Below, in pieces: positions 29,224-47,163 of a DNA stretch of 64,000 nucleotides (positions are counted from its first letter, which is position 1; every line of letters starts with the position of its first letter). Position numbers and translations under genes: made by a program. Origin of the DNA: an uncultured Clostridia bacterium (lineage in GTDB: Bacteria; Bacillota; Dehalobacteriia; UBA4068; CALXSR01); contig CALXSR010000015.1 in the NCBI GenBank assembly GCA_944391215.1, forward strand, positions 16,776-80,775, read 5' to 3'. The notes under the pieces are model-generated. The model saw only the letters and a list, made by a program, of their open reading frames with translations, made no database searches and was not told where the DNA came from.

Positions 29224-29595
29224 ATGGAACCGTTGACCAAGGCCGAATTTGAGTTAATGGAGGCAGTATGGCAAACCTCCATCCCAATTACCAGCAATCG
29301 AATCAAAGAAAATTTAGCCAACGGCAAGGCCTGGAAGGCTACCACCATTTTAACCCTACTAGGAAAATTGATTGATAAAAACTATATCCAAGCCCAAAAA
29401 CAAGGAAAGTTTTATGAATATACGATTTTAATTAGCAAAGAAGAGTATTTGCGGCAAGAAACACAGGGTTTTTTACAAAAGCTATACCAGGGTTCTTTAA
29501 AAAACATGCTAGCCACCTTGTATCGGGAAGATTCTTTAACAGAAACAGAAATTGCAGAAATGAAAGATTGGTTTGATCAGGAGGTGCTAAAATGA
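29224..29595 (+). CDS. BlaI/MecI/CopY-family repressor
   Basis: LTKAEFELMEAVW, WKATTILTLLGKL, LYQGSL. Confidence 0.92.
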   Translation: MEPLTKAEFELMEAVWQTSIPITSNRIKENLANGKAWKATTILTLLGKLIDKNYIQAQKQGKFYEYTILISKEEYLRQETQGFLQKLYQGSLKNMLATLYREDSLTETEIAEMKDWFDQEVLK

Positions 29596-31550
29596 GTCAA
29601 TTTATCCATACGCTCCTTTTTTTATCCGCTACCACCACCCTTTTTATTTTACCGCTGCTTTTGTTACGGAATTGGTTCTATAAAAAATACCATCCTTTTT
29701 TATTTTATAGCATTTGCCTGATCTTAGCCCTCCATTTACTTTTGCCTTACCAAATAAATATCAGCCAAATTGGTTTAAAACCAATCAATATTGCCGTTCC
29801 AACCAATATTACCATCGGACAAGAAAAAAATACAGCACCGTTGGTCTTAACAGAACCGGAACCAGAAACCGCCCGACTACAGCAGTCATTCCAAGTTGCT
29901 CAACCAATCCCATCGTCGGGCAGTCGTCATTTATCAGCGGTATCTCTTTGCCCTTTCCTTTTTTGTGTTTGGTTGGCAGGTTTTTTATCTTATCTATTGC
30001 AAATATTGCTTGCTTACCGCTATTTTTGCCGTCAACTACAACAAAACTTATCCCCGCTTGCGCCTTCGCTCCTCCCCCTATTACACAAATTACAATGGGA
30101 AATGGGCGTTTATAAGGAAATTACCATTTTACAAACCAGTTTACCGTTAGGCCCACTTCTTTATGGTTTTTGGCGGCCAAAAATTGTATTACCCAATCAA
30201 CCATTAAGTATCACAGAATATGAAATGATATTGCGTCATGAGTTAATGCATGCAAAGCATCACGATTTACTGGCAAAAGCAATGATGCAACTTGCTAACG
30301 CCGTACATTGGTTTAACCCCTTTGTATATTTCCTGACCAAGGAATGTAACAATGCTTGCGAGCATTATTGCGACCATAGCGTGCTGCAAGGACAGGATAA
30401 AAGCTATATCAAAGCTTATGGAGATACGATTTTAACCGTGATGCAACAGAATAAAAAGAAAACCTATGCCTTCACCACCCAGCTATCGGGCAACCAGAAA
30501 ACAATAAAAAAACGTTTTACCCATATGTTAGATAAAGCTCCTAAAAAAAGAGGGATTTTATGTTTTGTTCTTATACTTTGCCTCACCCTAGGTATTACTG
30601 CATGCGTAACTGTAAAACCAGATCATCCGCAGCAAGCACTGGAGCCAGAAAATACAATATCTGCTTCTTATGAAGAAACAATAAAAGCAATTTTAAACCG
30701 TAATTATCTCTCTATGGCAAAACTTTCTACTCCTTATGTAGGCGATCCGGTTGCGGTTGGCAAAGTATTATCCGCTACCCCATTAAATCCATATCGTATC
30801 AAAGGATTACAGATGCAAACCGCTCAACGCCCTTATCGCATCATATTGGATTTTTCTATGCCCCTTTCCTTACAACAGGATGAGATCATCAACGCCTTAG
30901 ACATTGCTACCGTTTTAGATTGTTTTGTTTTAATTGCTAATGTGGATCAAGTGGAATTAAACCATGCTTTTTTTGATGAGAAAGGGCAAGAAACAAAAGA
31001 AAAACGTACCACTCTTTTTAACCGGACCACAATCAATGGCTTATTGCAATGTAATGTGCAAAATTTAGCCAATGACCCCAATCGTTGGAAAAACCATTTA
31101 GAAAAATATTTAACCGGTAATATGGAACAATATGCGGTAATTGTCAGCGATTGCGAACTATTCCCCCAAAAAGGAACAACTGAAAACAGGCAATCGCAAT
31201 CTGACTCTATTCCATTAAAACAGGGTACTTTAGTGCAAATTTTAACTATAAATGAAACGGAGACGGAAGTGGCTTTATTCTTCACCGGCTCTCATGTCAC
31301 ACAGGGCTATGTCGCTAACGCCAATATTTCCACAAAATGGACTGACATCCTCACCTATGCCAAAGAAGGATATATAGACCAAAGCCCACTATACATCAAA
31401 AATGGCAACAAAATTAGCCCGTCCTTCACCCAAATAAGTGGGCAATATCGCATTTTAGAGGAAGAAAGCGATATGGTTTATGCCGAATTAAGCAATGGCA
31501 TGCGCGGTTGGCTTAAAAAAAGCGACTTAATCGTACCATTACCAAATTAA
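29592..31550 (+). CDS. BlaR1-like M56 metallopeptidase sensor with non-PBP C-terminal domain
   Basis: HELMH zinc motif, HWFNP, EHYCD; ATGA overlap with blaI; C-terminal TPYVGD (DUF4825-like). Confidence 0.88.
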   Translation: MSQFIHTLLFLSATTTLFILPLLLLRNWFYKKYHPFLFYSICLILALHLLLPYQINISQIGLKPINIAVPTNITIGQEKNTAPLVLTEPEPETARLQQSFQVAQPIPSSGSRHLSAVSLCPFLFCVWLAGFLSYLLQILLAYRYFCRQLQQNLSPLAPSLLPLLHKLQWEMGVYKEITILQTSLPLGPLLYGFWRPKIVLPNQPLSITEYEMILRHELMHAKHHDLLAKAMMQLANAVHWFNPFVYFLTKECNNACEHYCDHSVLQGQDKSYIKAYGDTILTVMQQNKKKTYAFTTQLSGNQKTIKKRFTHMLDKAPKKRGILCFVLILCLTLGITACVTVKPDHPQQALEPENTISASYEETIKAILNRNYLSMAKLSTPYVGDPVAVGKVLSATPLNPYRIKGLQMQTAQRPYRIILDFSMPLSLQQDEIINALDIATVLDCFVLIANVDQVELNHAFFDEKGQETKEKRTTLFNRTTINGLLQCNVQNLANDPNRWKNHLEKYLTGNMEQYAVIVSDCELFPQKGTTENRQSQSDSIPLKQGTLVQILTINETETEVALFFTGSHVTQGYVANANISTKWTDILTYAKEGYIDQSPLYIKNGNKISPSFTQISGQYRILEEESDMVYAELSNGMRGWLKKSDLIVPLPN

Positions 31551-31576
31551 AGACAAAAGCATTTGTTTTCGTCTTT

Positions 31577-32480
31577 TTATAAAAAAGATAAGAAGATACC
31601 TTGCAAACTATTATTTTGCAAACCAACTGCAATCCGCGGAGATAAATCCGCCGAAAATTGCAATAAATAATTTTGACTAACCGCATTTTGCATTCCCAAA
31701 AGTTCACTTACTTTTTGTGCCGCAATCTGCAACAAATCCATTCTTTGCGCCTGATTCAGCGGCTCTAAGCATCGTTTTATCCTTTCTCGCGCCCCTGTGC
31801 TAATATGCAAACCCCTGATATCCTCTTGCAATAAAACAAGGCCTATGGCGTTGGTAGCAACCGATTCATAAAGATTGATTAAAAGACCGCGATAATCCGG
31901 ACAATAACTTTGCCAAAGAGGAATCATGTGATCTACCCGAAAACGACATAATAAATCATTCTCTATCATCAGGTGTTTGAAATAAGCATTGATATAGTCG
32001 ATACCCAAATAATCATCTGGAATTGTTTGGCAAAGAGGATAATCAATTTGACAGGGTATTTCATGCGCAAAGAAAGTATCATCATATTGCCAAAAAAAGC
32101 ATAGATATTTTTTAAAGTATCCTGCAAAGCAATATTTTCTACTTTAGGCACACCAGAAGAAACCGTTTGCCATAGTTGTGTCCTCATTCTATTTTAGATG
32201 CAATTTCCTTTCTACCCAATTGATACTGTTCTTTAAGATATACTTATAGCCATTCTTTTTTTGGTTGCCAAAAGGGATCTGGCGGAATATGCAAAATATA
32301 ACAAAGCCCCCATAATAAATTTTGCACAATCTCCTTTGGTACTGAAGTACTTTCTCTCATCGTATAGCGCCTGGTTTGCCAAGCTAACAACCGATAGAAC
32401 TTTATTTGTCATAACAAAAATTCTTCCTCGGTAAAATCCGTTTGCTCCGGAAACAATTCCGATATGATATTTTCTGGCAA
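31577..32480 (-). pseudogene. Disrupted DUF6179-like gene
   Basis: AAGGAGG RBS + TTG 32480; TGA at codon 24; RYTMRESTSVP, LQDTLKNIYAFF and FFAHEIPCQIDYPL are separated by stops/frameshift. Confidence 0.65.
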
Positions 32481-32491
32481 ATTATTCCTCC

Positions 32492-32941
32492 TTATTTTCC
32501 ACACAAAGATCCTCGCCACGTAAAAAAACGGCATATTGCCTCTAAAGATGTTCCTGCTAAATATTCCACCGATCCCTGTCTTGCCCCATTAAAAACGGTT
32601 TGCATCGCAGTAATTAAGGCATCATCTGATAAATGTTCTAATGATTCCGTTTTATAATAATAAAACATCTTCTGTAAAGAAAACAAAGTCCCCTCATAAT
32701 TATTTTGCGACAGATGGAGAGAAGAACAAAAAGCAATAATCAATTTCTTTAAAATGCCATCACCAAATTCCATCCTGCCTGCATTTTGCAAAGCGCCCAA
32801 ACGATGCTCCAGCAAATTTCGTATTTGCTGATTTGACAACACCAGGCCAAATTTTTGACTCATTGCATTACAATCGGCAATTCCCTGTATCATTACGGTT
32901 ACCGGTTTAGAAAGAATGGTCCAAGCATTCCAGTCTTCCAT
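32492..32941 (-). CDS. DUF6323-like protein
   Basis: FGLVLS, GRMEFGDGILKKLI.AFC.S, FYYYKTES, SDDALI. Confidence 0.65.
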   Translation of the reverse strand: MEDWNAWTILSKPVTVMIQGIADCNAMSQKFGLVLSNQQIRNLLEHRLGALQNAGRMEFGDGILKKLIIAFCSSLHLSQNNYEGTLFSLQKMFYYYKTESLEHLSDDALITAMQTVFNGARQGSVEYLAGTSLEAICRFFTWRGSLCGK

Positions 32942-33103
32942 TTATCCACCCCATCGTATATAAATTACACTATTATCATGCCAGTTACAAGATTTGATCC
33001 TTGGGTAATTTTGTGTTATGATAAATACGTAAAAAGCGAAAATATTTTGTAAAAAAGCAAAATGTTTTCGCTCTTTTATTTTATAATAGCGATTAGAAAC
33101 AAT

Positions 33104-33132
33104 AAAAAAGCCTCTCAAACGAGAGGCTTTTT
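33104..33132 (-). terminator. Terminator of the nuo operon
   Basis: AAAAAAGCCTCTC-AAAC-GAGAGGCTTTTT about 35 bp after the second nuoM. Confidence 0.85.
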
Positions 33133-33167
33133 CGTATGGGTTCTTTTCCAAATTTTAATACTTGGTT

Positions 33168-34634
33168 TTACATCCCAAACAGGTGAAGAATCTGTCCTAC
33201 AATCGGGTCAAATACCGCCATTAAACCATTGGGCTGCAACCCGAAATAAATCGATAGTATTAACAAAATACCCATTGGCACCAATTCATAATAAGAACCG
33301 TCATGGATATGTCCTAATTCCGGGTTGGTTTCGCCAAAAGCAATTCTCTGAAAAGACCATAAATAATAAACAACCGCAATAATCATCCCTAATGCAACCA
33401 GGAAGGCAATATAGCGGAAGGCTTGCCATACGCCCATCAATACAGAAAACTCCCCAATGAAACCAACAAAGCCGGGTAACCCCATAGAAGCAAAAAAGGC
33501 TAATACAAATAAAGTCATGGCTTTTGGCATTTTACTATATAATCCGCTTAATTTAGAAATCAAACGCGTGCCACAAGAATGCTGGATAACGCCACACCCC
33601 ATAAAGAGCATTGCCGATACCAAACCATGCCCAACCATTTGGAAAATAGCCCCTTTGATACCAGGGGCAGTTAAACTGGCAACACCAATTAACACAAAGC
33701 CCATATGACTGATACTGGAATAAGCGATCATCTTCTTTAAATCATCCTGCGATAAAGCGACATAAGCGCCGTATACAATACTGAGCAAGGCCAAAATTAT
33801 CACCAACGGCGTGTATGCCTGCGCACCTTGCGGATTCATCATATAAGCGATACGAATGAGCCCATAACCACCCATTTTCAACAAAATACCAGCCAACAGA
33901 ACACTACCGCCAGTAGGCGCTTCTACGTGGGCATCCGGCAGCCAGGTATGGACTGGAATAACCGGCAATTTCACACAGAAGGCAAACAGCAAAGCGGGGA
34001 AAACCAGTAACTGGAACCCGGTGCTAAAGCCGGCTCCCATAATCTCCGGCATGGAAAATGTGAAATAGCCCAATAAATGAGAGGCCGCAAAAGCCATGGC
34101 CCCAATGGCTAAAAGCATTATTAAACTGGCCACATGGGTATAAATTAAAAACTTCATAGAAGCATAGCTACGGCGTGGACCACCCCAAATACCAATGATA
34201 AAAAACATCGGGATCAAAACAATTTCCCAGAAAATATAGAATAAGAAGAAATCTAAAGCAGAAAAAACACCTAAAACACCGGTTTCTAAAATCATCAATA
34301 AGGAGAAATATAAAGGCGCTCTTTCTTCCGTTTTCCAGGAAAAGATAACAACCAAGAAAACCAAAAGAGCCGTTAAAAGGAACAAAGGTAAACTTAACCC
34401 ATCTAAACCAACGGCAAAACTAACCCCAAAGGCAGGAAACCATTGATTTACTTGCCCCAACTGGTAACCTACACCAGTAAAATCAAATTGGAAGCAAGCA
34501 TAAATACCCAAAATAAGCGTAATCAAAGAACCAATAAAAGCCATAACCCTTGCCATGCCGTCGCTGTTTTTGCTGATAAAAATGGCCACGGTAGTAATTA
34601 AGGGGATTAACAGCATCCAGGTTATAATACTCAT
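33168..34634 (-). CDS. nuoM: Complex I antiporter-like subunit M, second copy (NuoM2)
   Basis: FWE, VKLPVIPVHTWLPDAHVEAPT, LLKMGGYG, SSISHMG, GFIGEF; AAGGAGG RBS, start 35 bp after nuoN stop. Confidence 0.93.
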   Translation of the reverse strand: MSIITWMLLIPLITTVAIFISKNSDGMARVMAFIGSLITLILGIYACFQFDFTGVGYQLGQVNQWFPAFGVSFAVGLDGLSLPLFLLTALLVFLVVIFSWKTEERAPLYFSLLMILETGVLGVFSALDFFLFYIFWEIVLIPMFFIIGIWGGPRRSYASMKFLIYTHVASLIMLLAIGAMAFAASHLLGYFTFSMPEIMGAGFSTGFQLLVFPALLFAFCVKLPVIPVHTWLPDAHVEAPTGGSVLLAGILLKMGGYGLIRIAYMMNPQGAQAYTPLVIILALLSIVYGAYVALSQDDLKKMIAYSSISHMGFVLIGVASLTAPGIKGAIFQMVGHGLVSAMLFMGCGVIQHSCGTRLISKLSGLYSKMPKAMTLFVLAFFASMGLPGFVGFIGEFSVLMGVWQAFRYIAFLVALGMIIAVVYYLWSFQRIAFGETNPELGHIHDGSYYELVPMGILLILSIYFGLQPNGLMAVFDPIVGQILHLFGM

Positions 34635-34669
34635 TGAACTACCTCCTTTAATAGAATCTCATTCCAAAA

Positions 34670-36118
34670 TTAAGGCAACAATATTGCGACGGCCGCCTGG
34701 CAAAGCATGAAAAGCTGATTGGGGAATAAACCCAAAAGAAGCAGCAAGCCAACACATATCGCAAGCGCCGTGGAATAAGAAACTATTTCTCCCCATTTTG
34801 CTTTCGGGGCAGTTTCCGCTGATGCCGGACTCATATACATGACTTTAATGAGTCGGGCATAATAAACCATAGAAAGGGCGCTGTTTAAAACAAGGATTAA
34901 AGCTAAAAGAATCATGCCGCCGCCCACTTCAAAGGCGGAAATGACAATCACCATTTTACTCCAAAAACCAAGCAAAGGCGGTACCCCTGCTAAGGACAAT
35001 AAAATAACGGAAAGGCCTAAAGCCAATAAGGGAACTGATTTACCCAAACCATGAAAAGATTGCAAGGAGTAATCTTGTTTCTTTTTACAAACCGCCTCAA
35101 TGCCAAAGAAAGCGCCAACAGCCATCAAACCATGGGCAACAATATGCATGATAGCGCCAGCTGCAGCCAAAGGCGTAAAGATCGCCAACCCAACCAAAAT
35201 ATTACCGGCATGCGCAATACTGGAGTAGGCCAACATCCTTTTCATATCATTTTGTACCAAAGCCACAATATTGCCAATCGTCATTGTTAAAGCAGCGATA
35301 ATAGCAAACAACAATATCACATGCAATTTAATCGCAATCAGCGTAGCCAAAAATAGTTTTAATACTACTACGAAAGCACCTTTTTTGGTAATCCCAGCTA
35401 AAAAAGCAGAAACTGGAGTCGGCGAACCTTCATAAGCATCTGGCGCCCAAAGGTGGAAAGGAACAATCGCCATTTTATAACCAAATCCAGCTAATAGGAA
35501 TATCATAGCCACAATTAAAATCGGCTGCAAAGTAGAAGCCTGTAAAACAGTGGCCACCACGCTTAATTGCACACTGCCCGTTAAACCATACAATAGCGAT
35601 AAGCCATATAAAATGAGGGCCGAAGAGAAAGCGCCTGTTACAAAATACTTAATAGCAGCTTCTTTCCCTTTTTCACTTTTTTGGTCAATAATGGGCAAAG
35701 CATAAGTCGAAATACTAACCAATTCAAAAGCCACAAATAAAGTGATGAAATCACCGGCGCTGCCCAAAAACATTAATCCCATGGTTGCAACCAATAACAA
35801 GCTAATATATTCTTTGGCAAAGCGCAAGTTTTGCAAATAGTTATAGGAACCCAATATGGTAATACCCGCTAGCACCAAAAAGATCAATTTCATCAATTCA
35901 CTAAAAGCATTGATTTCCATAGAGCCAAAAAGCATTACCGTATTCGCCCCGGTAAACAAAAACCAAACGGTACCTAAAAAAGATAAGCCAATCGCACCCA
36001 AGGCAAATACCATAGGTATGTTTTTACTAGCCCGCGGCAAAAGGAAAATAACAATCGCCACCAAAGCTAAAAGGATTTCCGGAGCAAAATACTGTAAATC
36101 AGAAGGCGTAATACCCAT
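34670..36118 (-). CDS. nuoN: Complex I subunit N
   Basis: PEILL, EAAIKYF, YKMAIVPFHLWAPDAYEGSPTP, KRMLAYSSIAH. Confidence 0.93.
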   Translation of the reverse strand: MGITPSDLQYFAPEILLALVAIVIFLLPRASKNIPMVFALGAIGLSFLGTVWFLFTGANTVMLFGSMEINAFSELMKLIFLVLAGITILGSYNYLQNLRFAKEYISLLLVATMGLMFLGSAGDFITLFVAFELVSISTYALPIIDQKSEKGKEAAIKYFVTGAFSSALILYGLSLLYGLTGSVQLSVVATVLQASTLQPILIVAMIFLLAGFGYKMAIVPFHLWAPDAYEGSPTPVSAFLAGITKKGAFVVVLKLFLATLIAIKLHVILLFAIIAALTMTIGNIVALVQNDMKRMLAYSSIAHAGNILVGLAIFTPLAAAGAIMHIVAHGLMAVGAFFGIEAVCKKKQDYSLQSFHGLGKSVPLLALGLSVILLSLAGVPPLLGFWSKMVIVISAFEVGGGMILLALILVLNSALSMVYYARLIKVMYMSPASAETAPKAKWGEIVSYSTALAICVGLLLLLGLFPNQLFMLCQAAVAILLP

Positions 36119-37602
36119 TAGAGAACACCTCCTAACAATTGCAAAATATATTGCGAACTCACATTAATCACATTTAAAATAGGAGCCGGGCAAATCCCAA
36201 AGAACAATACCAAAGCCCCTAGCACCGTTAAAGGAACGCTCTGATACCAAGTTAAATCATGCGGATGATGCACTTCCAGGGATTCCCGATAAGGACCAAA
36301 GAAAGCTCTTTGCAGGGCCCACAAATAATAAGCAGCCGTAATAACCAAAGAAATCATAGCTACCAAAGTAAGGGCCGGGTAAACGGAAAACGCTCCCAAA
36401 AATACCAGTAATTCCGCCACAAACCCCGCTAACAAGGGCAAACCTAAAGAGGCGAAGAAAGTGAATACGAAAAAGGTAGCCAAACGAGGTAAACGATTTG
36501 CCAAACCGCCCAATTCGGAAATTCTTCTGGTATGGAAAGTATGTTGTAAAATACCGCAAAGCATAAATAACATTGCTGAAATTAAGCCATGCGCAAACAT
36601 TTGATAAATGGCGCCATTGAAACCATTCACATTCATAACCGCCAAACCGAGTAAAACAGAACCCATATGGCTTACAGAAGAGTAGGCCACCATTTTTTTC
36701 ATATCGTCTTGTGCCAAAGCAAGGAAAGCGCCATACACCATACTAATAACCCCTAAAATAGCCATCGGTAAAGCATAATACTTGGCTGCTTCCGGCATTA
36801 AGCAAAAAGCAATACGAATTAAACCATAGCCGCCCATTTTTAATAATACCCCAGCCAAAAGAACACTACCGCCGGTAGGCGCTTCTACGTGGGCATCCGG
36901 TAACCAAGTGTGGAAAGGTACAACCGGAATTTTCACCGCAAAACCAAAGAATAAGGCTGGGAAGACCAAATACTGGAAGGAGCTAGCAAAGTGTACCTTT
37001 TGCATAATCTCTATCATGTTAAAGGTATAATATCCCAGCTCTCTGCCGGCTACAAAATACATAGCGATGATGCCCACCAGCATAATTAAACTGGCTACAT
37101 GTGTATAAACAAAAAACTTCAACGCCGCATAACGACGACGAGGACCGCCCCATTCGATAATTAAGAAATACATGGGTATTAAAACCAATTCCCAGAATAG
37201 ATAGAACAGGAAAAAGTCCAAACTCATGAAAACACCCAAGACACCCGTTTCCAAAAGCATTAACAGGGTAAAATAGGTTTTCGTTTTATGATCCACATCA
37301 AAAGAAAACAATGTCGTCAACGTGGTTAAAAGCGTAGTCAACATCACCAAAGGCATGCTTAACCCATCAATCCCCAAATAATAGCTGATACCGAAATCCT
37401 GAATCCAGGGAATCAATACCGAAAATTGCAGTTGGCTATTCGTCCAATCGAAACCAAGCAAAGCAAATACAGAAAGTACCAATGGAATTAAAGATACCGC
37501 AAAAGCAATCCATTTGGCTCTTTTGGTGGTGGTTCCGAATAAGAATACAAGCAATGCTGCTACCAATGGGGTAAAGAGAATGAATGTTAGCAAATGATTC
37601 AT
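36118..37602 (-). CDS. nuoM: Complex I subunit M, first copy (NuoM1)
   Basis: FWE, VKIPVVPFHTWLPDAHVEAPT, LLKMGGYG, GFVAEL; TAATG coupling to nuoL. Confidence 0.93.
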   Translation of the reverse strand: MNHLLTFILFTPLVAALLVFLFGTTTKRAKWIAFAVSLIPLVLSVFALLGFDWTNSQLQFSVLIPWIQDFGISYYLGIDGLSMPLVMLTTLLTTLTTLFSFDVDHKTKTYFTLLMLLETGVLGVFMSLDFFLFYLFWELVLIPMYFLIIEWGGPRRRYAALKFFVYTHVASLIMLVGIIAMYFVAGRELGYYTFNMIEIMQKVHFASSFQYLVFPALFFGFAVKIPVVPFHTWLPDAHVEAPTGGSVLLAGVLLKMGGYGLIRIAFCLMPEAAKYYALPMAILGVISMVYGAFLALAQDDMKKMVAYSSVSHMGSVLLGLAVMNVNGFNGAIYQMFAHGLISAMLFMLCGILQHTFHTRRISELGGLANRLPRLATFFVFTFFASLGLPLLAGFVAELLVFLGAFSVYPALTLVAMISLVITAAYYLWALQRAFFGPYRESLEVHHPHDLTWYQSVPLTVLGALVLFFGICPAPILNVINVSSQYILQLLGGVL

Positions 37603-39482
37603 TATAACAACCCTCCCCATACCAATGCAATCATAACGGTGACAGCCGCCGCAATGAGTAGCAAGTATTGTTGTAACTGCCCGGTAGAAGTTTTACGGAT
37701 TTCACTACCGCCAAAGACAAAACCGGAACAAATACCGCGTATAATCCCATCTACAATATAAATATCTACCCATTTTGCTGCTTTAGAAACCAGCAGGGTG
37801 ACATCACGAACAATATGGATAATACCGTCAATCACATGTTTATCGAAAAAGTCCGCTACTTTGGCAAGGCCAACTACAATATGATTACAAAACCAATTAT
37901 AAGCAGCATCAATATAGTAACGGTTAATCAATAAAGTACAAATACCTTTAAAGGTATTGGCAATTTTAGCGGCGCTAATTTTCTGCCAGCCATAAATAAC
38001 AGTCGCCAATAAAAATCCTAGCAGAGCGACTACAATGGAAATCATCATCACGGTATTGCTGCCATGTGCCATCGTTTCACCAGTAATAAAGCGCGCAATC
38101 GGTTTGCTAAATAAACCGGAAAAAGCAGCAAAGAAAGAAAGCACCACCAAAGGAATTAACATGGTTTTTCCGCAAGCATGACCATGTTTTTCCGTGCGCG
38201 GTTTGCCAGCAAATACCACATAATATAAACGGAACATATAAAATGCGGTTAAAAAGCTTGCTAAAAGCAAAATGCCACAAAAAATTGGATTTGCGTGCGC
38301 CGCACCAATTAAAATTTCGTCTTTACTCCAAAAACCGGATAAAGGCGGAATCCCAGCAATAGAAATGGTAGCAATTAAAACGGTAATAGCAGTAACTTTA
38401 TCCTTTTTCCAAACACCGCCCATTTCCCAAATATTATTGGTACCGGTAACGTGAATAACACAACCGGCTCCCAAAAAGAGCAATGCTTTAAAGAAAGCAT
38501 GGTTTATCAAATGTAAAATTGCACCCGCCATATTTAAAGTTCCCAAAGCTACCACCATAAAACCTAGCTGGCTTAAGGTGGAAAAAGCCAAAACCCGTTT
38601 AAAGTCCGTAGCCGTTAAGGCCATTAAAGCGGTGCCCAAGGCAGTAATTAAACCAATGATAACCATAAAATTCTGCGAAATAGGCGCTAAAACCAACAGG
38701 GGCATAAAACGAGCCATTAAATATATCCCGGCTTTTACCATGGTAGCAGCGTGAATTAAAGCAGAAACCGGCGTGGGCCCTTCCATAGCATCCGGTAACC
38801 AAACGTGCAGCGGAAATTGTGCCGATTTCCCAATTACCCCGCCAAACAAACCCAAGGTAGCAGCGGTAATCCAAAAAGGATCCATATTGGCTGCTGCGGC
38901 AAAAATTTCATGATATTGTAAAGAACCCGTTTGGGTATACAAAATCAAAATACCAATCAACATAAAAACGTCGCCCACTCTGGTGGTCAAAAACGCTTTT
39001 TTTGCAGCAGCAGCAGCAGATGGTTTATGAAACCAAAAGCCAATTAATAAGTAAGAGCACAGACCCATAATTTCCCAAAAAATGAAAGCCTGTAAAATAT
39101 TATCAGCAATGACTACGCCAAGCATAGAGAAAGTAAATAACTGGACTTCAGCAAAAAAGCGCATTAAACCGCCTTCCCCGTGCATGTAGCCATTGGCATA
39201 TAATAAAATGAAAGTTGCTAAAAAAGATACCAATAATAATAAGGTAATGGTAAGTGGATCCAGCATAAAGCCAAATTTAAAATTTAAAAACCAGGTAAAT
39301 TCCACTTGTTTTACCGTACCGGCAATCACATCAGGCAATACAGATAAACTCATGCAAAAAGAAGCGATGGTGCCCAACATACCCAAATAAGCGCTTTTCA
39401 AACCCAGCTTTTTGCCAAAAAGCAAGGTTAATATCATGGTAAATAAAACCGGCATCGGTATTAACCAAAAGTAGTCTATCAT
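37602..39482 (-). CDS. nuoL: Complex I subunit L with extended amphipathic helix
   Basis: FWEIMG, GKSAQFPLHVWLPDAMEGPTPVSALIHAATMV, NHAFFKALLF, GFWSKD. Confidence 0.95.
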   Translation of the reverse strand: MIDYFWLIPMPVLFTMILTLLFGKKLGLKSAYLGMLGTIASFCMSLSVLPDVIAGTVKQVEFTWFLNFKFGFMLDPLTITLLLLVSFLATFILLYANGYMHGEGGLMRFFAEVQLFTFSMLGVVIADNILQAFIFWEIMGLCSYLLIGFWFHKPSAAAAAKKAFLTTRVGDVFMLIGILILYTQTGSLQYHEIFAAAANMDPFWITAATLGLFGGVIGKSAQFPLHVWLPDAMEGPTPVSALIHAATMVKAGIYLMARFMPLLVLAPISQNFMVIIGLITALGTALMALTATDFKRVLAFSTLSQLGFMVVALGTLNMAGAILHLINHAFFKALLFLGAGCVIHVTGTNNIWEMGGVWKKDKVTAITVLIATISIAGIPPLSGFWSKDEILIGAAHANPIFCGILLLASFLTAFYMFRLYYVVFAGKPRTEKHGHACGKTMLIPLVVLSFFAAFSGLFSKPIARFITGETMAHGSNTVMMISIVVALLGFLLATVIYGWQKISAAKIANTFKGICTLLINRYYIDAAYNWFCNHIVVGLAKVADFFDKHVIDGIIHIVRDVTLLVSKAAKWVDIYIVDGIIRGICSGFVFGGSEIRKTSTGQLQQYLLLIAAAVTVMIALVWGGLL

Positions 39483-39511
39483 TTTTTCACCTCATTTCCA
39501 TAAAATTCCGG

Positions 39512-39826
39512 TTACCAGCGCAGCAGATTGAATTTGTCCAAATCCAAACTGCCTTTGCTGCGGTAAAGCGCAATGGCAATCGCTAAACCAATTGCAACTT
39601 CCGCCGCCGCAATGACGATGACGAAAATAGAGAAAATTTCGCCGGCGCCGTTGGAAAGAGGCAGAAATTTGCTAAAAGCCAGTAAATTGATATTCACTGC
39701 ATTAAGCATCAACTCAATCGAAAGTAGAATAGAAATGACATGCTTTTTGCCAATGGCTCCAAAAAGCCCAATCGCAAATAAAGCCGCTCCCAATAATAAA
39801 TAATGTGTTAAGCCAATTTCAAGCAT
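39512..39826 (-). CDS. nuoK: Complex I subunit K
   Basis: SIELMLNA, AAAEVAIGLA. Confidence 0.95.
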   Translation of the reverse strand: MLEIGLTHYLLLGAALFAIGLFGAIGKKHVISILLSIELMLNAVNINLLAFSKFLPLSNGAGEIFSIFVIVIAAAEVAIGLAIAIALYRSKGSLDLDKFNLLRW

Positions 39827-40325
39827 GGTCTTTCACCTCTCTCCCGATGATAATTGCCGCGACCATAGCCACCAAAAGCAAAACAGCCGCTAATTCAAAA
39901 GCAATCACATATTGTGAAAGAAGCCTTACCCCAATTTCGCCCACGGAAGTAGCAGCCGCCGCAATTCCTGTCGTTTGCCAAGTTGTTTTGATTAAAGAGA
40001 AGGATAAAAACCCAAAAAACAACATGGCCGCCGCTACGCCAAGATAGCCAAAACGGCTATAGGGATTGGTTTCCGCCATTTTGCCATCGCCTTGGTTCAC
40101 CAAAAGCAAAGCAAAAATGACCAAAATAGAAACTGCTCCAGCATAAACCAAAACCTGCACTGCTGCTAAAAAGTCGGCTCGCAGCGTTAGGAAAATGCCG
40201 GCAACACCTAAAAAAGTCACAATCAAGCATAAAACGCTATGTACAATATTTTTCAGGTTAATAACAGCCAAAGCGCCTCCCAAAGTGAGCGCTGCCAACA
40301 GGAAAAAAACAATACTCTGCATCAT
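39819..40325 (-). CDS. nuoJ: Complex I subunit J
   Basis: QVLVYAGAV, FELAAVLLL. Confidence 0.93.
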   Translation of the reverse strand: MMQSIVFFLLAALTLGGALAVINLKNIVHSVLCLIVTFLGVAGIFLTLRADFLAAVQVLVYAGAVSILVIFALLLVNQGDGKMAETNPYSRFGYLGVAAAMLFFGFLSFSLIKTTWQTTGIAAAATSVGEIGVRLLSQYVIAFELAAVLLLVAMVAAIIIGREVKDHA

Positions 40326-40891
40326 GCTTTTGTTTCCTCCCCTCTGTTTTCCGGTTCAGTCGCCTGCTTTTCAGCAGCCATTTTTTCTTCCGGCAAATTT
40401 TGTTTCTCCACAGGAGCCGCATTCACAACTTCTTTTTCTTCCTTTTTTTCTGCTGCCGGAGCTACCGGCATTTTCACTGGTTGCCCAAACGTGGAAGCTA
40501 CCGCGTCCATATTTGGGTTTTTCAACAAATCATGTACCACATTTTCTTTGTGATAAATCGCCGTTTCAAATTCCAAAGTAAATTTTAAACAATGCGTTGG
40601 ACATGTTTCTACGCATAAACCGCAATGCAAGCAATAAGAACGATTGATTTCGTATTTCATCATCTTCTTTTTGCCTTCTTCTGTTTTGCCAATTTCACAA
40701 GTAATGGCATGGTTCGGGCAAGCACGGGCGCATAAGCCGCAAGCAATGCATTTATCAACGTCCATTTGGAAATCGCCACGCCAGCATTTTGGCAAAACAG
40801 GTTTTACTTCGGGATATTTTTCCGTTAATCGTTTGCTAACGGAAGCTTTACCGGTAACGGCCAATCCTTTTATTAAACCTTTTCCGTACAT
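40322..40891 (-). CDS. nuoI: Complex I subunit I (2x 4Fe-4S) with low-complexity C-terminal tail
   Basis: TEKYP, CIACGLCARACP, CLHCGLCVETCP. Confidence 0.92.
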   Translation of the reverse strand: MYGKGLIKGLAVTGKASVSKRLTEKYPEVKPVLPKCWRGDFQMDVDKCIACGLCARACPNHAITCEIGKTEEGKKKMMKYEINRSYCLHCGLCVETCPTHCLKFTLEFETAIYHKENVVHDLLKNPNMDAVASTFGQPVKMPVAPAAEKKEEKEVVNAAPVEKQNLPEEKMAAEKQATEPENRGEETKA

Positions 40892-40893
40892 TG

Positions 40894-41958
40894 TTACCAC
40901 CCCAAACCATTATTAAATACAAACAAAACAATACTTGTAATAAGAATATTGGCCAAGGAAATCGGTACTAAAAACTTCCAGCCAAAATTCATCAACTGGT
41001 CTACCCGAATACGCGGGAAAGTCCAACGGCAGAAAATAAAGAAAGAGAATAAAACGAATGTTTTCCCCAAAAACCATACCCAACCAGGTAAAAACGGTCC
41101 TTGCCAACCGCCCAGAAAAACGGTAGTGCCAATGGAGGCAATCACAAACAAATTGCAATATTCAGCCAAAAAGAATAGCGCATAACGCATCCCGGAATAT
41201 TCGGTATAAATACCAGCCGTTAATTCCGATTCCCCTTCCGGTAAGTCGAAAGGCGCCCGATTAGTTTCAGCCAAACCGCAAATTAAATAAATAATAAAAG
41301 CCACCGGCTGTAAAAAAACAAACCAAATATGGTTTTGGGCCGCCACAATAGATTGCATTTCCAAAGTACCGGTAATTAGTACCACGCCCAATAAAGAAAA
41401 CACCATGGGGATTTCATAACTAATCATTTGCGATACCCCACGCATAGCACCCATCAAGGAATATTTATTATTGGACCCCCAACCAGCCATAAAAATAGGG
41501 ATAGTGGAAAGCGCGGATACCGCAATTAAATAGAACAGGCCAATACTCAAATCTAGCGCCGCCATTTGCCGGCCAAATGGGATTACCGCTAAAGAAAGCA
41601 TCGGCGGTACAAAAATCAACAAAGCAGCCCATAAATGTACGACCCGATCGGCGTTTAAAGGCACTACATCTTCTTTGGTCAACAATTTAATCGCATCGGC
41701 AATGGTTTGGAACCAACCATTGGGACCCAAGCGATTCGGACCGGGGCGTCTTTGAATATACCCTGCCAATTTTCTTTCCCATATTACATAGAAAAGGGCA
41801 CATAAAACGCAAACAGCAATGATTGCAATAAAATAAACCAAACCCATACCAATTTCTGTAACAGTTGCATTAAAGCCTAGCCAGGCAAAGAAATGACGGA
41901 TAAGACCCGCTATGTAGAGAAAAATATTATCAAAAAATTCTAGTATATTACTCAACAT
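40894..41958 (-). CDS. nuoH: Complex I subunit H
   Basis: ERKLAGYIQRRPGPNR, QMISYE, NRAPFDLPEGESEL. Confidence 0.95.
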   Translation of the reverse strand: MLSNILEFFDNIFLYIAGLIRHFFAWLGFNATVTEIGMGLVYFIAIIAVCVLCALFYVIWERKLAGYIQRRPGPNRLGPNGWFQTIADAIKLLTKEDVVPLNADRVVHLWAALLIFVPPMLSLAVIPFGRQMAALDLSIGLFYLIAVSALSTIPIFMAGWGSNNKYSLMGAMRGVSQMISYEIPMVFSLLGVVLITGTLEMQSIVAAQNHIWFVFLQPVAFIIYLICGLAETNRAPFDLPEGESELTAGIYTEYSGMRYALFFLAEYCNLFVIASIGTTVFLGGWQGPFLPGWVWFLGKTFVLFSFFIFCRWTFPRIRVDQLMNFGWKFLVPISLANILITSIVLFVFNNGLGW

Positions 41959-41975
41959 ACTTCCCCTCCTTCCGA

Positions 41976-43082
41976 CTAAGCGTCAATTTCGCCTAATACA
42001 ATATCAAAACTGGCCAAAATTGCAACCAAATCAGCCATTTTATGGCCGATAAATATTTCATCATAAATCGCGATATTGGAAAAAGACGGCCGTCTAAAAT
42101 GAACCCGATAAGGATTGGTACTGCCATCGCTGGCCACATAGCAGCCAAGAATTCCCTTTGGATTTTCCGCTTCATGATAAGCATCGCCAACCGGCGGTTT
42201 GATTACTTTTGGGACTTTAGCCATAATTGGCCCTTCCGGAATATCCTGAATAAATTGCTGGATAAGACGGAAGCTTTCTTCCACTTCTTTCATTCGTACC
42301 ATATAACGATCATAACAATCACCGTGTTCGGTGGTGGCCACATTGATTTGATATTTGCCATACTGCAAATAAGGACGATCGCGTCTTAGATCATAATCAA
42401 CCCCACTAGCTCGTAAATTAGGGCCAGTTAAACCATAATTTAAAGCTTTTTCCGCCGTAATTTTGCCAATACCTTTGGTACGAGCATGGAAAATTTCATT
42501 ATCATCAACGAGAGTATGATATTGTTTAATGAAAGCAGGACATTCCTTTAAAAACGCTTCATAATGTTTAAAGAAATCCTCATTCAAATCTGCGGCAACC
42601 CCACCAATACGAATATAATTAAATGTCATACGGGCCCCACATAACTGGGAAAGCATTTCTAAAACGCGTTCCCGTAATTGGAAAGGATAAAAAGCGCCTG
42701 TTACCGCCCCTAAGTCCATAATATAAATACCAATCCCAACCATATGGCTGGCAATACGCATCAATTCCGCTGTAATCATCCGAATATATTGCGCACGTTC
42801 CGGTACCTCAACCCCCATCAGCTTTTCTACCGCCAAAACATAAGCCAAATTATTGCTGATGCCGGACAAATAATCCAAACGATCCGTATAGGGAATGACT
42901 TGCGGATACGTTCTGCTTTCCGCTAATTTTTCAATGCCGCGGTGCAAATAGCCGATTTTGGTTTTCGAGGCAACGCAATATTCGCCGTCCATCTCCACCA
43001 CAACATGAAGAACCCCGTGCGTACTGGGGTGCTGCGGACCTAAATTTAAAGTATAGGTTTGTGTTTTAACAGCATCACTCAT
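41976..43082 (-). CDS. nuoD: Complex I subunit D
   Basis: LNLGPQHPSTHGVL, GYLHRGIEK, DRLDY, DIVLGEID; no NiFe CxxC motifs. Confidence 0.95.
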   Translation of the reverse strand: MSDAVKTQTYTLNLGPQHPSTHGVLHVVVEMDGEYCVASKTKIGYLHRGIEKLAESRTYPQVIPYTDRLDYLSGISNNLAYVLAVEKLMGVEVPERAQYIRMITAELMRIASHMVGIGIYIMDLGAVTGAFYPFQLRERVLEMLSQLCGARMTFNYIRIGGVAADLNEDFFKHYEAFLKECPAFIKQYHTLVDDNEIFHARTKGIGKITAEKALNYGLTGPNLRASGVDYDLRRDRPYLQYGKYQINVATTEHGDCYDRYMVRMKEVEESFRLIQQFIQDIPEGPIMAKVPKVIKPPVGDAYHEAENPKGILGCYVASDGSTNPYRVHFRRPSFSNIAIYDEIFIGHKMADLVAILASFDIVLGEIDA

Positions 43083-43537
43083 TGTGGTTTCGCCCCCATT
43101 CTATTATGGTGATCATTCACAAAATCTTTGCGCAAGGGATAACCGTCAAAGCCTTCCCAAAGCAAAATACGCTCTAAATTGGGATGATTTAAAAAAGTGA
43201 TGCCCATCAAATCATAAACTTCTCTCTCTAGCCAGTTAGCCGAACACCACAAGTTTGCCAAAGATTCTATTTCCGGTTTTTCATGATCTAATTTTACCTT
43301 AATGGTAAAATGTTCCCCACTAGCATGGTCAAAGAGTTGATAAACCACTTCAAAATACTCTTTTGCATCTACCGAGGTTATATCAGATAATAAATCCATG
43401 CCCATGCGTTTTAAATAAGACATAATTTCTAAAAAGTTTTCTTTTTCAACCCAAAACTCTTCTGCTTTTTCTTCCGAAAAAGTTACTTTATCCGCATAAT
43501 GCTTCAATAAAGATTCTTTATAATTGGTCGCCATCAT
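43079..43537 (-). CDS. nuoC: Complex I subunit C
   Basis: ANWLEREVYDLMG, HPNLERIL, YPLRKDF. Confidence 0.93.
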   Translation of the reverse strand: MMATNYKESLLKHYADKVTFSEEKAEEFWVEKENFLEIMSYLKRMGMDLLSDITSVDAKEYFEVVYQLFDHASGEHFTIKVKLDHEKPEIESLANLWCSANWLEREVYDLMGITFLNHPNLERILLWEGFDGYPLRKDFVNDHHNRMGAKPQ

Positions 43538-43549
43538 TACCCCTCCTTT

Positions 43550-44077
43550 TTATTCATGTGTTTTCACAATTTCCGGATGGTTTAATTTTTGTTTTAATTG
43601 CAATAAACCATGAATTAACGCTTCCGGACGCGGAGGGCAGCCCGGAATATAAATATCTACCGGAACAATTTGATCGGCGCCTGGTACAACAGAATAGGAG
43701 TCCACAAAAGGGCCGCCAGAAATTGCACAATTTCCCATGGCAATGACCCAACGCGGCTCCGGCATTTGATGATAAAGCAATTCCACGGAAGGACGCATTT
43801 TTTCTGTAATCGTACCAGCCACAATCATCACATCGGCTTGCCGCGGCGAGTTACGAAACACTTCATATCCAAAACGCGAACAGTCAAAACGAGATTGCGT
43901 CATACAAATCATTTCAATAGCACAACAAGCTAAGCCAAATTGAAAAGGCCATAAGGACCAACCGCGGCCCCAATTAAACAATTTTTCCAAGGTAGTGAAA
44001 AGAATTCCTTTCTTTTCCAATTCTTCTTGACTCATCAAATCGGTATTGTCCGGAATTTTATTTTCTTTTACTGCCAT
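43550..44077 (-). CDS. nuoB: Complex I subunit B
   Basis: [30 protein letters not shown]. Confidence 0.95.
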
Positions 44078-44463
44078 TTTAGCACTCCTTCCTTCCAGGC
44101 ATACCACAGACCAGCTACTAAAATTGCGATGAAAATCAACATTTCAATGAGACCAAAAAGGCCCAAGGCATGAAAAGCTACTGCCCATGGATATAAGAAA
44201 ACCGTTTCCACATCGAAAATTAAGAAAATCAAAGCGTAGAGAAAATAGCTTGTTTTATACCGTACCCAAGTAGTACCTTCCGTTAGCATACCGCATTCAT
44301 ACGTAATCCTTTTACGGTCATAGGGTCTGTGAGGAGCAAATATACGCGAAATAATCAAGGCTGCGGCCGCAAATGCAATCGCCCCAACAAACATAATGCC
44401 CACGATACCATACTGTACCAAAAAGTCTACTCCGCTTACTGGATCTGTCATTTTCCTTGCCAT
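44068..44463 (-). CDS. nuoA: Complex I subunit A
   Basis: [25 protein letters not shown]. Confidence 0.95.
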
Positions 44464-44860
44464 CCTTTCTTTTTATATTTCTTATAAAAACTCAATTTAA
44501 AATTTTTGCAACTTTATAATATTGCGCAATTTGCACACGAAAAGATAAAAAAATAGTTTTTTAGCCTGCCTAAAAATAATATTTTTTCATCTAAAACTTA
44601 TAAATATGCAATTCTTTTTCTATATGAAACATGCTAAGCAATGCTTTTGCCTGCAGTTTTAAAAACATTAACCAAGTGCAATCAAAAAAATAGTTTTTGA
44701 AACTTATTTATTTTACCATGTTTAGGGTAAATTCGCAAGTTTTCTACCTTTTTTACCCTTGTTATTTTTCATCAAAAATGGATATTATAATTGACTTTTG
44801 TTTAAAAAATGCTAGTCTATAAATATAGTATCTCTTCTAGAAAAACAAAGGAGGAAAAAA

Positions 44861-45244
44861 ATGAAAAAACAAACCTCCCACACAGAAGAAGGACAAAACT
44901 GTCCTCTCACTTATTCTCTCCATTTAAAACTAAAAAAACAAGATGAAATATTTGGCCCTGGTATTATGCAATTATTATCAAATATTGAAGAAGACCATTC
45001 CCTAAATTCAGCTTGTGAAAAAATGAATATGGCTTATAGCAAAGGTTGGCGGATTATTAAAACCGCAGAAAAACAACTGGGTTTCCCTTTATTAGAAAGG
45101 AAAATAGGCGGCGTTTCCGGCGGCGGTTCAGAACTTACCCCTAAAGCGCGAGATTTGGTAGAACGGTTCTCGGCTTTTCAAACAAAGGTTTATCATTTAG
45201 CAGATCAAGCCTTTCAGGAACTTTTTCCCCAAGATCAATTTTAA
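44861..45244 (+). CDS. ModE N-terminal-type winged-helix regulator (no TOBE domains)
   Basis: FGPG..LL..I...SLN.A...MNMAYSKGW, GGVSGGGSELT. Confidence 0.8.
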   Translation: MKKQTSHTEEGQNCPLTYSLHLKLKKQDEIFGPGIMQLLSNIEEDHSLNSACEKMNMAYSKGWRIIKTAEKQLGFPLLERKIGGVSGGGSELTPKARDLVERFSAFQTKVYHLADQAFQELFPQDQF

Positions 45245-45380
45245 TACATTTTCACAAATTGGCAAGACCAATTTTTTCCGCGCTTTTGGCGCGGTTTTTC
45301 TTTTCATTTGTGAGTAAGCACAAAGCATGCTACAATAAAATAAGAATGCAAATTCTCAATTTATTAATGTAGGTGTTTTT

Positions 45381-46073
45381 ATGGAAACCAATATTTTAAT
45401 TGTAGATGATGAACAAGAAATTGCCGATTTATTAGAACTATATTTAAAAAATGAAAATTACCGTGTCCATAAATTCTACAGCGCGTTACCAGCTTTACAA
45501 TGCGTCAAAAGCCATGATATTGATTTAGCAATTTTGGATGTGATGCTACCGGAAATGGACGGCTTTACGCTTTGTAAAGAAATTCGCCAGGAATATCATT
45601 TTCCCATTATCATGCTTACCGCCAAAGTAGAAGACTATGATAAAATCACCGGTTTAACCATTGGAGCAGATGATTATATTACCAAACCCTTTAATCCCTT
45701 AGAAGTGATCGCACGGGTTAAAGCACAACTGCGCCGCTATACCAAATACAATGAAAAAATCGGCAAGGAAAATGAAGATATTTTGGAGTTTTCCGGATTA
45801 AGCATCAACAATACCACCCATGAATGCATCCTCTATGGAAAAGATTTGAGCTTAACGCCCATCGAATTTTCCATTTTATGGTTGCTCGCCAGTAATCGCG
45901 GGAAAGTTATCTCTTCTGAGGAATTATTTGAACAAGTATGGGGGGAAAAATATCTTTATTCTAATAATACAGTTATGGTGCATATTCGTCATTTAAGAGA
46001 GAAAATGCATGAACCGCATCGCAATCCCAAATTTATTAAAACTGTTTGGGGGGTTGGCTATAAAATTGAGTAA
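45381..46073 (+). CDS. OmpR-family response regulator, VanR-like
   Basis: VDDE, LDVMLP, DKITGLTIGADDYITKPFNPLE, NNTVMVHIRHLREK, TVWGVGY. Confidence 0.88.
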   Translation: METNILIVDDEQEIADLLELYLKNENYRVHKFYSALPALQCVKSHDIDLAILDVMLPEMDGFTLCKEIRQEYHFPIIMLTAKVEDYDKITGLTIGADDYITKPFNPLEVIARVKAQLRRYTKYNEKIGKENEDILEFSGLSINNTTHECILYGKDLSLTPIEFSILWLLASNRGKVISSEELFEQVWGEKYLYSNNTVMVHIRHLREKMHEPHRNPKFIKTVWGVGYKIE

Positions 46074-47163
46074 AGAAAATCCGCAATATTTAAGGAAATT
46101 AAAAAGTAAGCTTTTTTTAAAAATGATATTCGCTTTTGTGATTGGTATTTTGGCCGCTTTTTTATTTTTATTGGCCCTAGACGGCATTTTAAACAACTTT
46201 TTGGCCGAAAGCATTTCCAGTATCAACTATGGGCTTTACCTTTTCTTCGTAGCGCATAAACAAAGTTTTATGATGATTTTTGCCCTGCTCATTATTTTGT
46301 TAACCGTTTATTTTTCCATCAGCAAAACAGCCAATTATATTGACCTAATTGTACAAAGCATTGATAAAATTTTCCAAAAAGAAGAAGATTTAATTGAACT
46401 TCCCGATGATTTTAAGGAAGTCGAAAATAAATTAAATGGCATCAAATTTGATGCCCTGCGCAATGAACAAATTGCCAAAGATGCCGAAGCCAAAAAAAAC
46501 GACTTATTGGTTTATTTAGCGCATGATTTAAAAACCCCATTGACCTCTGTGATTGGTTATTTAACTTTGTTAAGAGAGGAACCGGATTTACCCGCTGAAC
46601 AAAGACAAAAATATATCAATATTTCTTTAGAGAAATCAGAACGCCTAGAAGATTTAATCAATGAGTTTTTTGAAATTACCCGTTTCAATCTGCAAAATAT
46701 TGTTTTAGAAAACAAACAAATTCATTTGCATAAAATGTTAGATCAATTAGTGGACGAGTTTTACCCGTTGCTGGCTGAAAAGAATTTAAACTGTCAGCTG
46801 CATATGGAAGAGCAAATTACCATTCGCGGCGATGCGGACAAATTGGCTCGCGTTTTTGATAATCTTTTACGGAATGCCATTAACTATAGTTATGAAAACA
46901 GTGACATCGATATTTTCGTCAAAAAAGATGAAAATATGGTAGAACTAATTTTCCAAAACCAGGGCAACCCTATTCCGGAACATAAACTCAACACTATTTT
47001 TGAAAAATTTTTTCGCTTGGATACAGCCCGTTCCAGCAAAACAGGCGGCGCCGGATTAGGTTTAGCCATTGCCAAAGAAATCGTAGAATTGCATCATGGC
47101 AGTATCAAAGCGTATAGCAGCAGCGAATATACCAAATTCAGCATTTTGCTCCCTATAAAATAA
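46066..47163 (+). CDS. Membrane sensor histidine kinase, VanS-like
   Basis: Two TM helices, YLAHDLKTPLTSVIGYL, EFFEITRF, RSSKTGGAGLGLAI; TTG start overlaps the regulator. Confidence 0.88.
   Translation: MSKENPQYLRKLKSKLFLKMIFAFVIGILAAFLFLLALDGILNNFLAESISSINYGLYLFFVAHKQSFMMIFALLIILLTVYFSISKTANYIDLIVQSIDKIFQKEEDLIELPDDFKEVENKLNGIKFDALRNEQIAKDAEAKKNDLLVYLAHDLKTPLTSVIGYLTLLREEPDLPAEQRQKYINISLEKSERLEDLINEFFEITRFNLQNIVLENKQIHLHKMLDQLVDEFYPLLAEKNLNCQLHMEEQITIRGDADKLARVFDNLLRNAINYSYENSDIDIFVKKDENMVELIFQNQGNPIPEHKLNTIFEKFFRLDTARSSKTGGAGLGLAIAKEIVELHHGSIKAYSSSEYTKFSILLPIK

Follow-up and report, generated by a model that had tools for sequence, protein, structure and literature searches.

Operon architecture and gene identities

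The stretch of DNA analyzed here (the window; 64,000 nt, to whose full length all coordinates refer) belongs to an uncultured Bacillota lineage and carries on its minus strand, at 44463-33168, an operon for complex I (nuo) in which a second nuoM gene stands after nuoN. Twelve open reading frames (ORFs) on the same strand form this 11.3-kb cluster in the order nuoA-B-C-D-H-I-J-K-L-M1-N-M2, and neighboring nuo ORFs overlap or lie at most 35 nt apart throughout the operon. A preliminary description of this DNA had read the locus as a contiguous nuoA-N series followed by a second full-length nuoM, and both the ORFs and the profile matches (Pfam for nuoA, B, C, D, H, I, J, and K; NCBIfam for L, M1, N, and M2) agree with that reading. 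From the upstream region to the terminator, the features of the operon are as follows.

44464..44860, minus strand: upstream intergenic region with candidate promoters, 397 nt from nuoA to a divergent LysR-like gene
44068..44463, minus strand: nuoA, 131 aa (PF00507, E = 1.6e-36)
43550..44107, minus strand: nuoB, 185 aa from a GTG start (PF01058, E = 1.7e-30)
43079..43537, minus strand: nuoC, 152 aa (PF00329, E = 9.4e-38)
41976..43082, minus strand: nuoD, 368 aa (PF00346, E = 7.7e-93)
40894..41958, minus strand: nuoH, 354 aa (PF00146, E = 1.6e-120)
40322..40900, minus strand: nuoI, 192 aa, with two 4Fe-4S motifs (PF00037 and PF12838)
39819..40325, minus strand: nuoJ, 168 aa (PF00499, E = 1.5e-35)
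39512..39826, minus strand: nuoK, 104 aa (PF00420, E = 2.5e-29)
37602..39482, minus strand: nuoL, 626 aa, with a lengthened lateral helix (HL) (NF005141, 570 bits)
37722..37799, minus strand: extra 26-residue HL module within nuoL, 78 nt, approximately residues 562-587 (MAFFT alignments against NuoLs with a short HL)
36118..37620, minus strand: nuoM1, 500 aa, which may start at Met7 (TIGR01972, 565.9 bits; cut-off 263.8)
34670..36118, minus strand: nuoN, 482 aa (TIGR01770, 349.2 bits; cut-off 332.6)
34635..34669, minus strand: nuoN-nuoM2 spacer, 35 nt, containing AAGGAGG (read from the sequence)
33168..34634, minus strand: nuoM2, 488 aa, the fourth antiporter-like gene (TIGR01972, 523.4 bits; cut-off 263.8)
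33104..33133, minus strand: intrinsic terminator-like hairpin directly after the M2 stop (13-pair stem, 4-nt loop, then TTTTTT)

The start of nuoB is uncertain, and the GTG codon chosen here gives a 40-nt overlap with nuoA. At the distal end of the operon, the 35-bp spacer before M2 and the ribosome-binding site that had been ascribed to this gene can be read directly in the sequence: the nuoN stop (TAA) occupies 34672-34670, and AAGGAGG lies at 34648-34642, 7 nt before the M2 ATG (34634). The terminator that had been placed behind M2 is there as well, in the form of the stem and T-run at 33133-33104. Upstream of nuoA, promoter-like hexamers are found at 44738-44710 and 44604-44576, although these are consensus matches whose number does not exceed the shuffled expectation. 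Within the operon, neither promoter-like matches (43 vs. 36.5 ± 6.4 in shuffled sequence) nor terminator-like matches (23 vs. 17.4 ± 5.0) are enriched. No regulatory element between nuoN and M2 was found by sequence reading, by the promoter/terminator scan, or by comparison of the spacer across 13 genomes. One public run supplied a DNA contig that crosses the nuoN-M2 junction (34475-34938) and may derive from the source sample. No RNA crossing this junction was found in the runs compared (X20, a possible RNA run; the RNA runs X23 and X24; and the DNA run X1); X20 yielded two short mismatch-free pieces on nuoM1, and elsewhere these runs gave only short mismatched bits.

A lengthened lateral helix in NuoL

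At 626 aa, NuoL is unremarkable in length, and the insertion in HL stays hidden unless the protein is aligned. The extra module takes the form of a second D-x4-D-G unit (D547/D552, then D573/D578); where precisely it is placed in this repeat is arbitrary. To compare NuoLs we used an anchor distance, i.e., the number of residues that separate the first Asp from the Gly conserved in the motif TG..Q.Y. Each of the 11 complete L-M-N-M loci gives a value of 54, as does L097, a locus in which the contig breaks off within M2. The tandem Chloroflexota loci (L-M-M-N; 8/8) give 54-56, and among the other 80 loci, of the order L-M-N, 68 give 28-30. A long HL is present at every two-nuoM locus (21/21, counting L097 and its truncated M2).

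Structure prediction is consistent with an extended helix. Specifically, an AlphaFold model of the window's NuoL (26-sequence alignment; pLDDT [predicted local distance difference test] 83.1; predicted TM-score [pTM] 0.80) renders residues 523-596 as one unbroken 74-residue helix, with the sixteenth transmembrane helix (TM16) at 603-625, vs. a helix of 50 residues in the NuoL of a one-nuoM (1M) Anaerobacillus operon modeled by an equal procedure. When the short preceding helices are included, the spans are 93 residues in the window's NuoL and 67 in the 1M control, and this 26-residue difference corresponds to ~39 Å. In solved structures, that distance is roughly the width of one antiporter-like subunit. 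The fold itself was confirmed with Foldseek, in which the model reached a TM-score of ~0.8 to NuoL/NdhF/ND5 chains.

The module can also be present in higher number. A NuoL of 656 aa encoded at L009:3110-5077 (the same contig as L107, from genome G452) has three D-x4-D-G modules in HL, i.e., two extra, and the database proteins P0167 and P0168 (656 aa) share its anchor distance of 80 residues. Despite these three modules, only four antiporter-like genes are present in the nuo operon of G452, the genome's three further ones belonging to an Mrp-like cluster.

Pump residues in both NuoM proteins

The two NuoM proteins are 51% identical over 488 residues, and each retains the residues expected of an ion pump. 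The preliminary description had listed a TM5 Glu, a TM7 Lys, a TM8 Lys, and a TM12 Glu in both copies, and alignment supports this in full: E144, K230, K261, and E403 in M1 and E137, K222, K253, and E395 in M2 align with their equivalents in Paracoccus NuoM (PDB 8qby_M). These four positions, together with three channel His residues, are invariant in 14/14 M1 rows and 14/14 M2 rows, which represent 13 genomes, L009 and L107 being the same contig. The roles of such Glu, Lys, and His channel residues are those given in the complex I literature. M2 itself is a NuoM by profile score, reaching 523 bits on TIGR01972, far above the best MrpD model (194 bits).

Conservation across related genomes

A survey of the L-M-N-M order in related genomes, as had been suggested together with the preliminary description, found that the order recurs. 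Outside contig-end truncations, the full A-B-C-D-H-I-J-K-L-M1-N-M2 order is present in 10/10 fetched relatives, and L-M1-N-M2 is found also on the public metagenome-assembled genome (MAG) contigs L008 and L009; among 401 genomes sampled from the phylum, L-M-N-M recurs only in G452, which is the genome of L009. Chance does not explain the arrangement, given that no relative possessing the operon lacks it. Across the class (73 species genomes), relatives of M2 occur in the window's own family and in 13 of the 15 genomes of family f3, and the M2 query found none in families f2 (0/31), f4, f5, and f7; family f6 has a single nuoM.

Where the arrangement occurs, its parts stay together. All 13 lineage genomes examined combine L-M1-N-M2 with the long HL and every pump residue, the gap between nuoN and M2 is 6-35 nt in these genomes, and neither M1 nor M2 has been lost from any of them. 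More widely, M2 orthologues with ≥53% identity fell into ~55 clusters in a database search. In one relative (G030; 95% complete), the PF00361 genes number exactly four and none lies outside the nuo operon, which leaves M2 with no other partner complex in that genome.

Electron donor and genome context

No nuoE, nuoF, or nuoG was found near the operon (ORFs and flank annotation), and the only Complex1_51K protein in the genome (1.79 Mb in 53 contigs; 92.8% complete) is HydB of a HydABC-type FeFe hydrogenase cluster. The same genome encodes a fumarate reductase of the FrdC-FrdA-FrdB type as well as an adjacent UbiA-family prenyltransferase (MenA) and UbiE methyltransferase. Cytochrome bd was not found in this 92.8%-complete assembly. 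As Frd and MenA/UbiE are present and NuoEFG is absent, a ferredoxin-type low-potential donor likely feeds menaquinone through this enzyme. Electron transfer from ferredoxin to menaquinone releases ~67-82 kJ per electron pair by textbook potentials, and that from NADH ~47 kJ, from which it follows that five ions per pair would be conceivable only with a low-potential donor.

The genes for these functions lie on other contigs, namely FrdC-A-B, the UbiA-family and UbiE pair, and the HydA-HydB-HydC cluster at loci L098 (C20), L099 (C6), and L100 (C16); the FeFe hydrogenase cluster also contains a second hydrogenase-like gene and genes for histidine-kinase-like ATPases. Elsewhere in the genome, an Mrp-type cluster (L101; G000:C8:15000-24000) comprises MnhE, MnhG, an MbhE-like protein, MnhB, a NuoK-like protein, and three PF00361 proteins (503, 502, and 575 aa), after which comes a gene for an FMN reductase. 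Next to the operon itself, a short LysR-like helix-turn-helix gene diverges from nuoA, and the flanks (29592-32941 and 44861-47163) encode a BlaR1-type M56 peptidase, DUF6179 and DUF6323 proteins, and a response regulator and histidine kinase pair. Public runs containing the stretch 33100-37700 amount to 20 rows from 12 studies, with at least half of the sampled words present in three rows; most are labeled chicken gut or gut metagenome, and some are labeled sludge or dust.

Origin of the second NuoM

In the main tree (IQ-TREE, 63 rows, LG+G4; support as ultrafast bootstrap [UFBoot] and Shimodaira-Hasegawa-like approximate likelihood ratio test [SH-aLRT]), M1 and M2 form clades of their own (support 99/99 and 100/99, respectively) and, together with two archaeal NuoMs, a 17-row clade (UFBoot 93/SH-aLRT 99). 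The two NuoMs of the tandem Chloroflexota operons (Ma and Mb) fall into two other, separate lineages, and the approximately unbiased (AU) test rejects a clade of M2 and Chloroflexota Mb (delta log-likelihood 187, p = 3.3e-8), a grouping that was chosen after the tree had been seen. The Chloroflexota were sampled at the phylum level (81 genomes), from which eight tandem nuoM loci were fetched; a class-level sample of Chloroflexia (51 genomes) contained no adjacent nuoM pairs. None of the conclusions depends on those genomes of the two samples that are flagged as unpublished. The preliminary description had proposed that the placement of M2 after nuoN may mark an independent origin. With respect to the tandem Chloroflexota type of two-nuoM (2M) complex I, the tree and the AU test support such a separate origin, M1 and M2 lying outside both Ma and Mb, in a comparison without Nitrospira (clade 3) and Thaumarchaeota (clade 2).

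The relation of the two NuoMs to archaeal proteins is less settled. In a quick tree that added 67 database matches, M2 stood beside a 50-row clade of Thermoplasmata and Methanomassiliicoccales (SH-aLRT 84), yet constraining M1 and M2 to one clade scored 7.6 log-likelihood units better than this tree (p-AU 0.61), and for this reason we do not claim an archaeal origin of M2. On these sequences, M1 and M2 are best read as close paralogues. The nearest named relatives of M2 beyond its own clade are NuoMs of Thermoplasmata and Methanomassiliicoccales, at 49-54% identity. A Candidatus Methanofastidiosia MAG contig (L011; 8609 nt), which breaks off within nuoN, encodes a NuoL of 640 aa with the long HL as well as a NuoM placed with the M1/M2 clade; a second M might follow N there.

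A probable four-pump enzyme and its alternatives

We consider it likely that this operon encodes a headless 2M-type complex I, in which L, two M subunits, and N share one membrane arm. In such an enzyme, the eleven canonical subunits would be joined by the second NuoM to give four antiporter-like subunits in a single arm, and the HL of NuoL, longer by one 26-residue docking module (~39 Å), would span all four; we infer that M1 and M2 assemble jointly, in whichever physical order. A low-potential donor, e.g., reduced ferredoxin, would feed the enzyme, menaquinone would be reduced, and the resulting menaquinol would be reoxidized by the fumarate reductase of the genome. With four pump modules, some five ions might be moved per two electrons, instead of four. 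The 12-subunit pump of the preliminary description thereby finds support in the gene set and in the 26-residue HL insertion, which accompanies M2 in 13/13 genomes; the raised ion/electron ratio put forward with it would follow if all four modules pump.

Several observations weigh against this four-pump interpretation, and most of them concern long HLs that occur without a second nuoM. Among 15 single-nuoM loci of the same phylum (the nearest NuoM relatives and two f6 genomes of the same class), nine have the long HL (L102-104, L106, L108-110, L114, and L115), with a module identical in size (26 residues) and position and with operons that end at nuoN. Two of the genomes concerned, G403 (96% complete) and G114 (99% complete), contain no more than three PF00361 genes altogether. 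Further afield, 74/75 more distant NuoL database matches, whose M count is not known, have the long HL and span several phyla by source names, though a long-HL query favors such matches. In addition, the HL part of the AlphaFold model is of low confidence (pLDDT 51-67), and by textbook potentials an NADH donor could not afford five ions per two electrons, which makes the stoichiometry hinge on an unproven donor. As the long HL is not confined to two-nuoM operons, it supports a fourth pump and does not prove one. We do not claim a single origin of the long HL, as the HL state requires at least five changes on the NuoL core tree, such that gain and loss are not separable. These sister lineages, with the long HL and three pump genes, offer a natural control in which to ask what the extension does. 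One of their operons (L108; G114:C15:15000-33000) has a rotated order, K-L-M-N and then A-B-C-D-H-I-J, on one strand.

The same long-HL operons lend weight to a different reading, namely that M1 and M2 are interchangeable and yield two three-pump isoforms (L-M1-N and L-M2-N), the long HL being inherited and unrelated to M2. Cyanobacteria provide a precedent, as their NdhD paralogues give alternative isoforms, albeit encoded in separate operons. Nine related single-nuoM operons with the long HL, two of them in near-complete genomes with only three antiporter-like genes, speak for such isoforms, and an M1-M2 identity of only 51% leaves room for functional divergence. However, one operon with a gap of 6-35 nt in 13/13 genomes leaves no room for separate regulation, both genes are retained in every one of these genomes, and the long HL is present at all 21 two-nuoM loci (L097 included), and we regard isoforms as unlikely. 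Similarly doubtful, in our judgment, is a scenario in which the long HL predates the second pump and has the wider distribution, an antiporter module having been added at the operon end to a scaffold that was already long, with M2 perhaps a facultative subunit by which an anaerobe could shift its complex I between roughly four and five ions per electron pair.

A facultative or sub-stoichiometric M2, in which a three-pump complex also works and the ion/electron ratio can be shifted, would fit the apparent existence of three-pump, long-HL enzymes in the phylum and the position of M2 as the last gene, with a strong ribosome-binding site of its own. Against it stand the lack of any regulatory element found between nuoN and M2 and the strict co-conservation of M2, with nothing to indicate a variable composition, which together make it rather improbable. 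That M2 functions outside complex I, alone or with an Mrp-type antiporter, and is merely co-transcribed with nuo, appears very improbable: although an Mrp-like cluster with three PF00361 genes lies on another contig of the genome, M2 is a NuoM by score (523 bits on TIGR01972 vs. 194 bits on MrpD), and G030 retains M2 with no antiporter-like gene beyond the nuo operon. The four-pump, headless 2M-type complex is the interpretation that we favor.

If the enzyme does move five ions per electron pair, a gut anaerobe would obtain more ATP from fumarate respiration driven by ferredoxin. The lineage adds a 2M case beyond the nitrifiers and Chloroflexota, in a small-genome, uncultured Bacillota anaerobe that also has genes for fumarate reductase and for the final steps of menaquinone synthesis. 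As M1 and M2 appear to be close paralogues split by nuoN, an extra subunit can seemingly arise by a route that is neither tandem nor drawn from two lineages, and such a route, distinct from that of Chloroflexota, adds to the case for repeated invention.

Comparison with known systems

The 2M complex I was reportedly described by Chadwick, Hemp, Fischer & Orphan 2018 (ISME J 12:2668). Passages in citing papers (PMC6606698, PMC9040806, PMC7117926, PMC8004040, and PMC7300363) characterize it by a second nuoM in the nuo cluster and by a NuoL in which an insertion of 26 residues lengthens the amphipathic helix HL (PMC9040806 and PMC6606698). Complexes of the four-pump kind have been deduced from genomes, and as far as could be seen, none has been isolated. 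According to these passages, Chloroflexi 2M operons have the tandem order L-M-M-N, NuoEFG is absent in some published 2M clades, and the published clades include Nitrospira (clade 3) and Thaumarchaeota (clade 2). Neither the L-M-N-M order nor a second NuoM in Firmicutes is mentioned in the literature searched, which did not cover the text of Chadwick et al. 2018, and PMC12361115 contains no discussion of NuoM duplication.

Among known enzymes, the headless 11-subunit complex I of many anaerobes and the NDH-1 of cyanobacteria come close: the eleven core genes (nuoA-D and H-N) are present in identical order, and the N-module genes (E, F, and G) are absent from the cluster. As in that type, the electron donor would not be NADH via NuoF, the sole NuoF-like protein of the genome being that of the hydrogenase. 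To these eleven genes the operon described here adds a twelfth (M2), and the HL of its NuoL is longer by 26 residues. It differs also from the NdhD-type arrangement, in which paralogues are encoded, along with partner genes of their own, in separate operons under separate regulation, as M2 begins 35 nt past nuoN, and no second nuoL-type or Cup-type gene was found nearby (ORFs and flank annotation).

There is likewise a close likeness to the 2M complex I, with which the operon shares two NuoM-type genes in one nuo cluster, the insertion of ~26 residues in the HL of NuoL, proton-channel residues kept in both NuoMs, and, as in some published clades, the absence of NuoEFG. By alignment, the HL insertion occupies the same position as in the eight tandem Chloroflexota operons. 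In contrast to these operons, in which the order is L-M-M-N (8/8 loci), the two nuoM genes are not adjacent here, nuoN standing between M1 and M2; furthermore, M1 and M2 fall into one clade with two archaeal NuoMs, whereas each of the two Chloroflexota Ms belongs to a NuoM lineage of its own. The host, too, is different, being an uncultured Bacillota lineage whose DNA comes mostly from gut metagenome runs. Both features that define the 2M type are present, and judged by its genes the complex I encoded here is of that type; it differs from the Chloroflexota type in its gene order and in the kinship of its M subunits.

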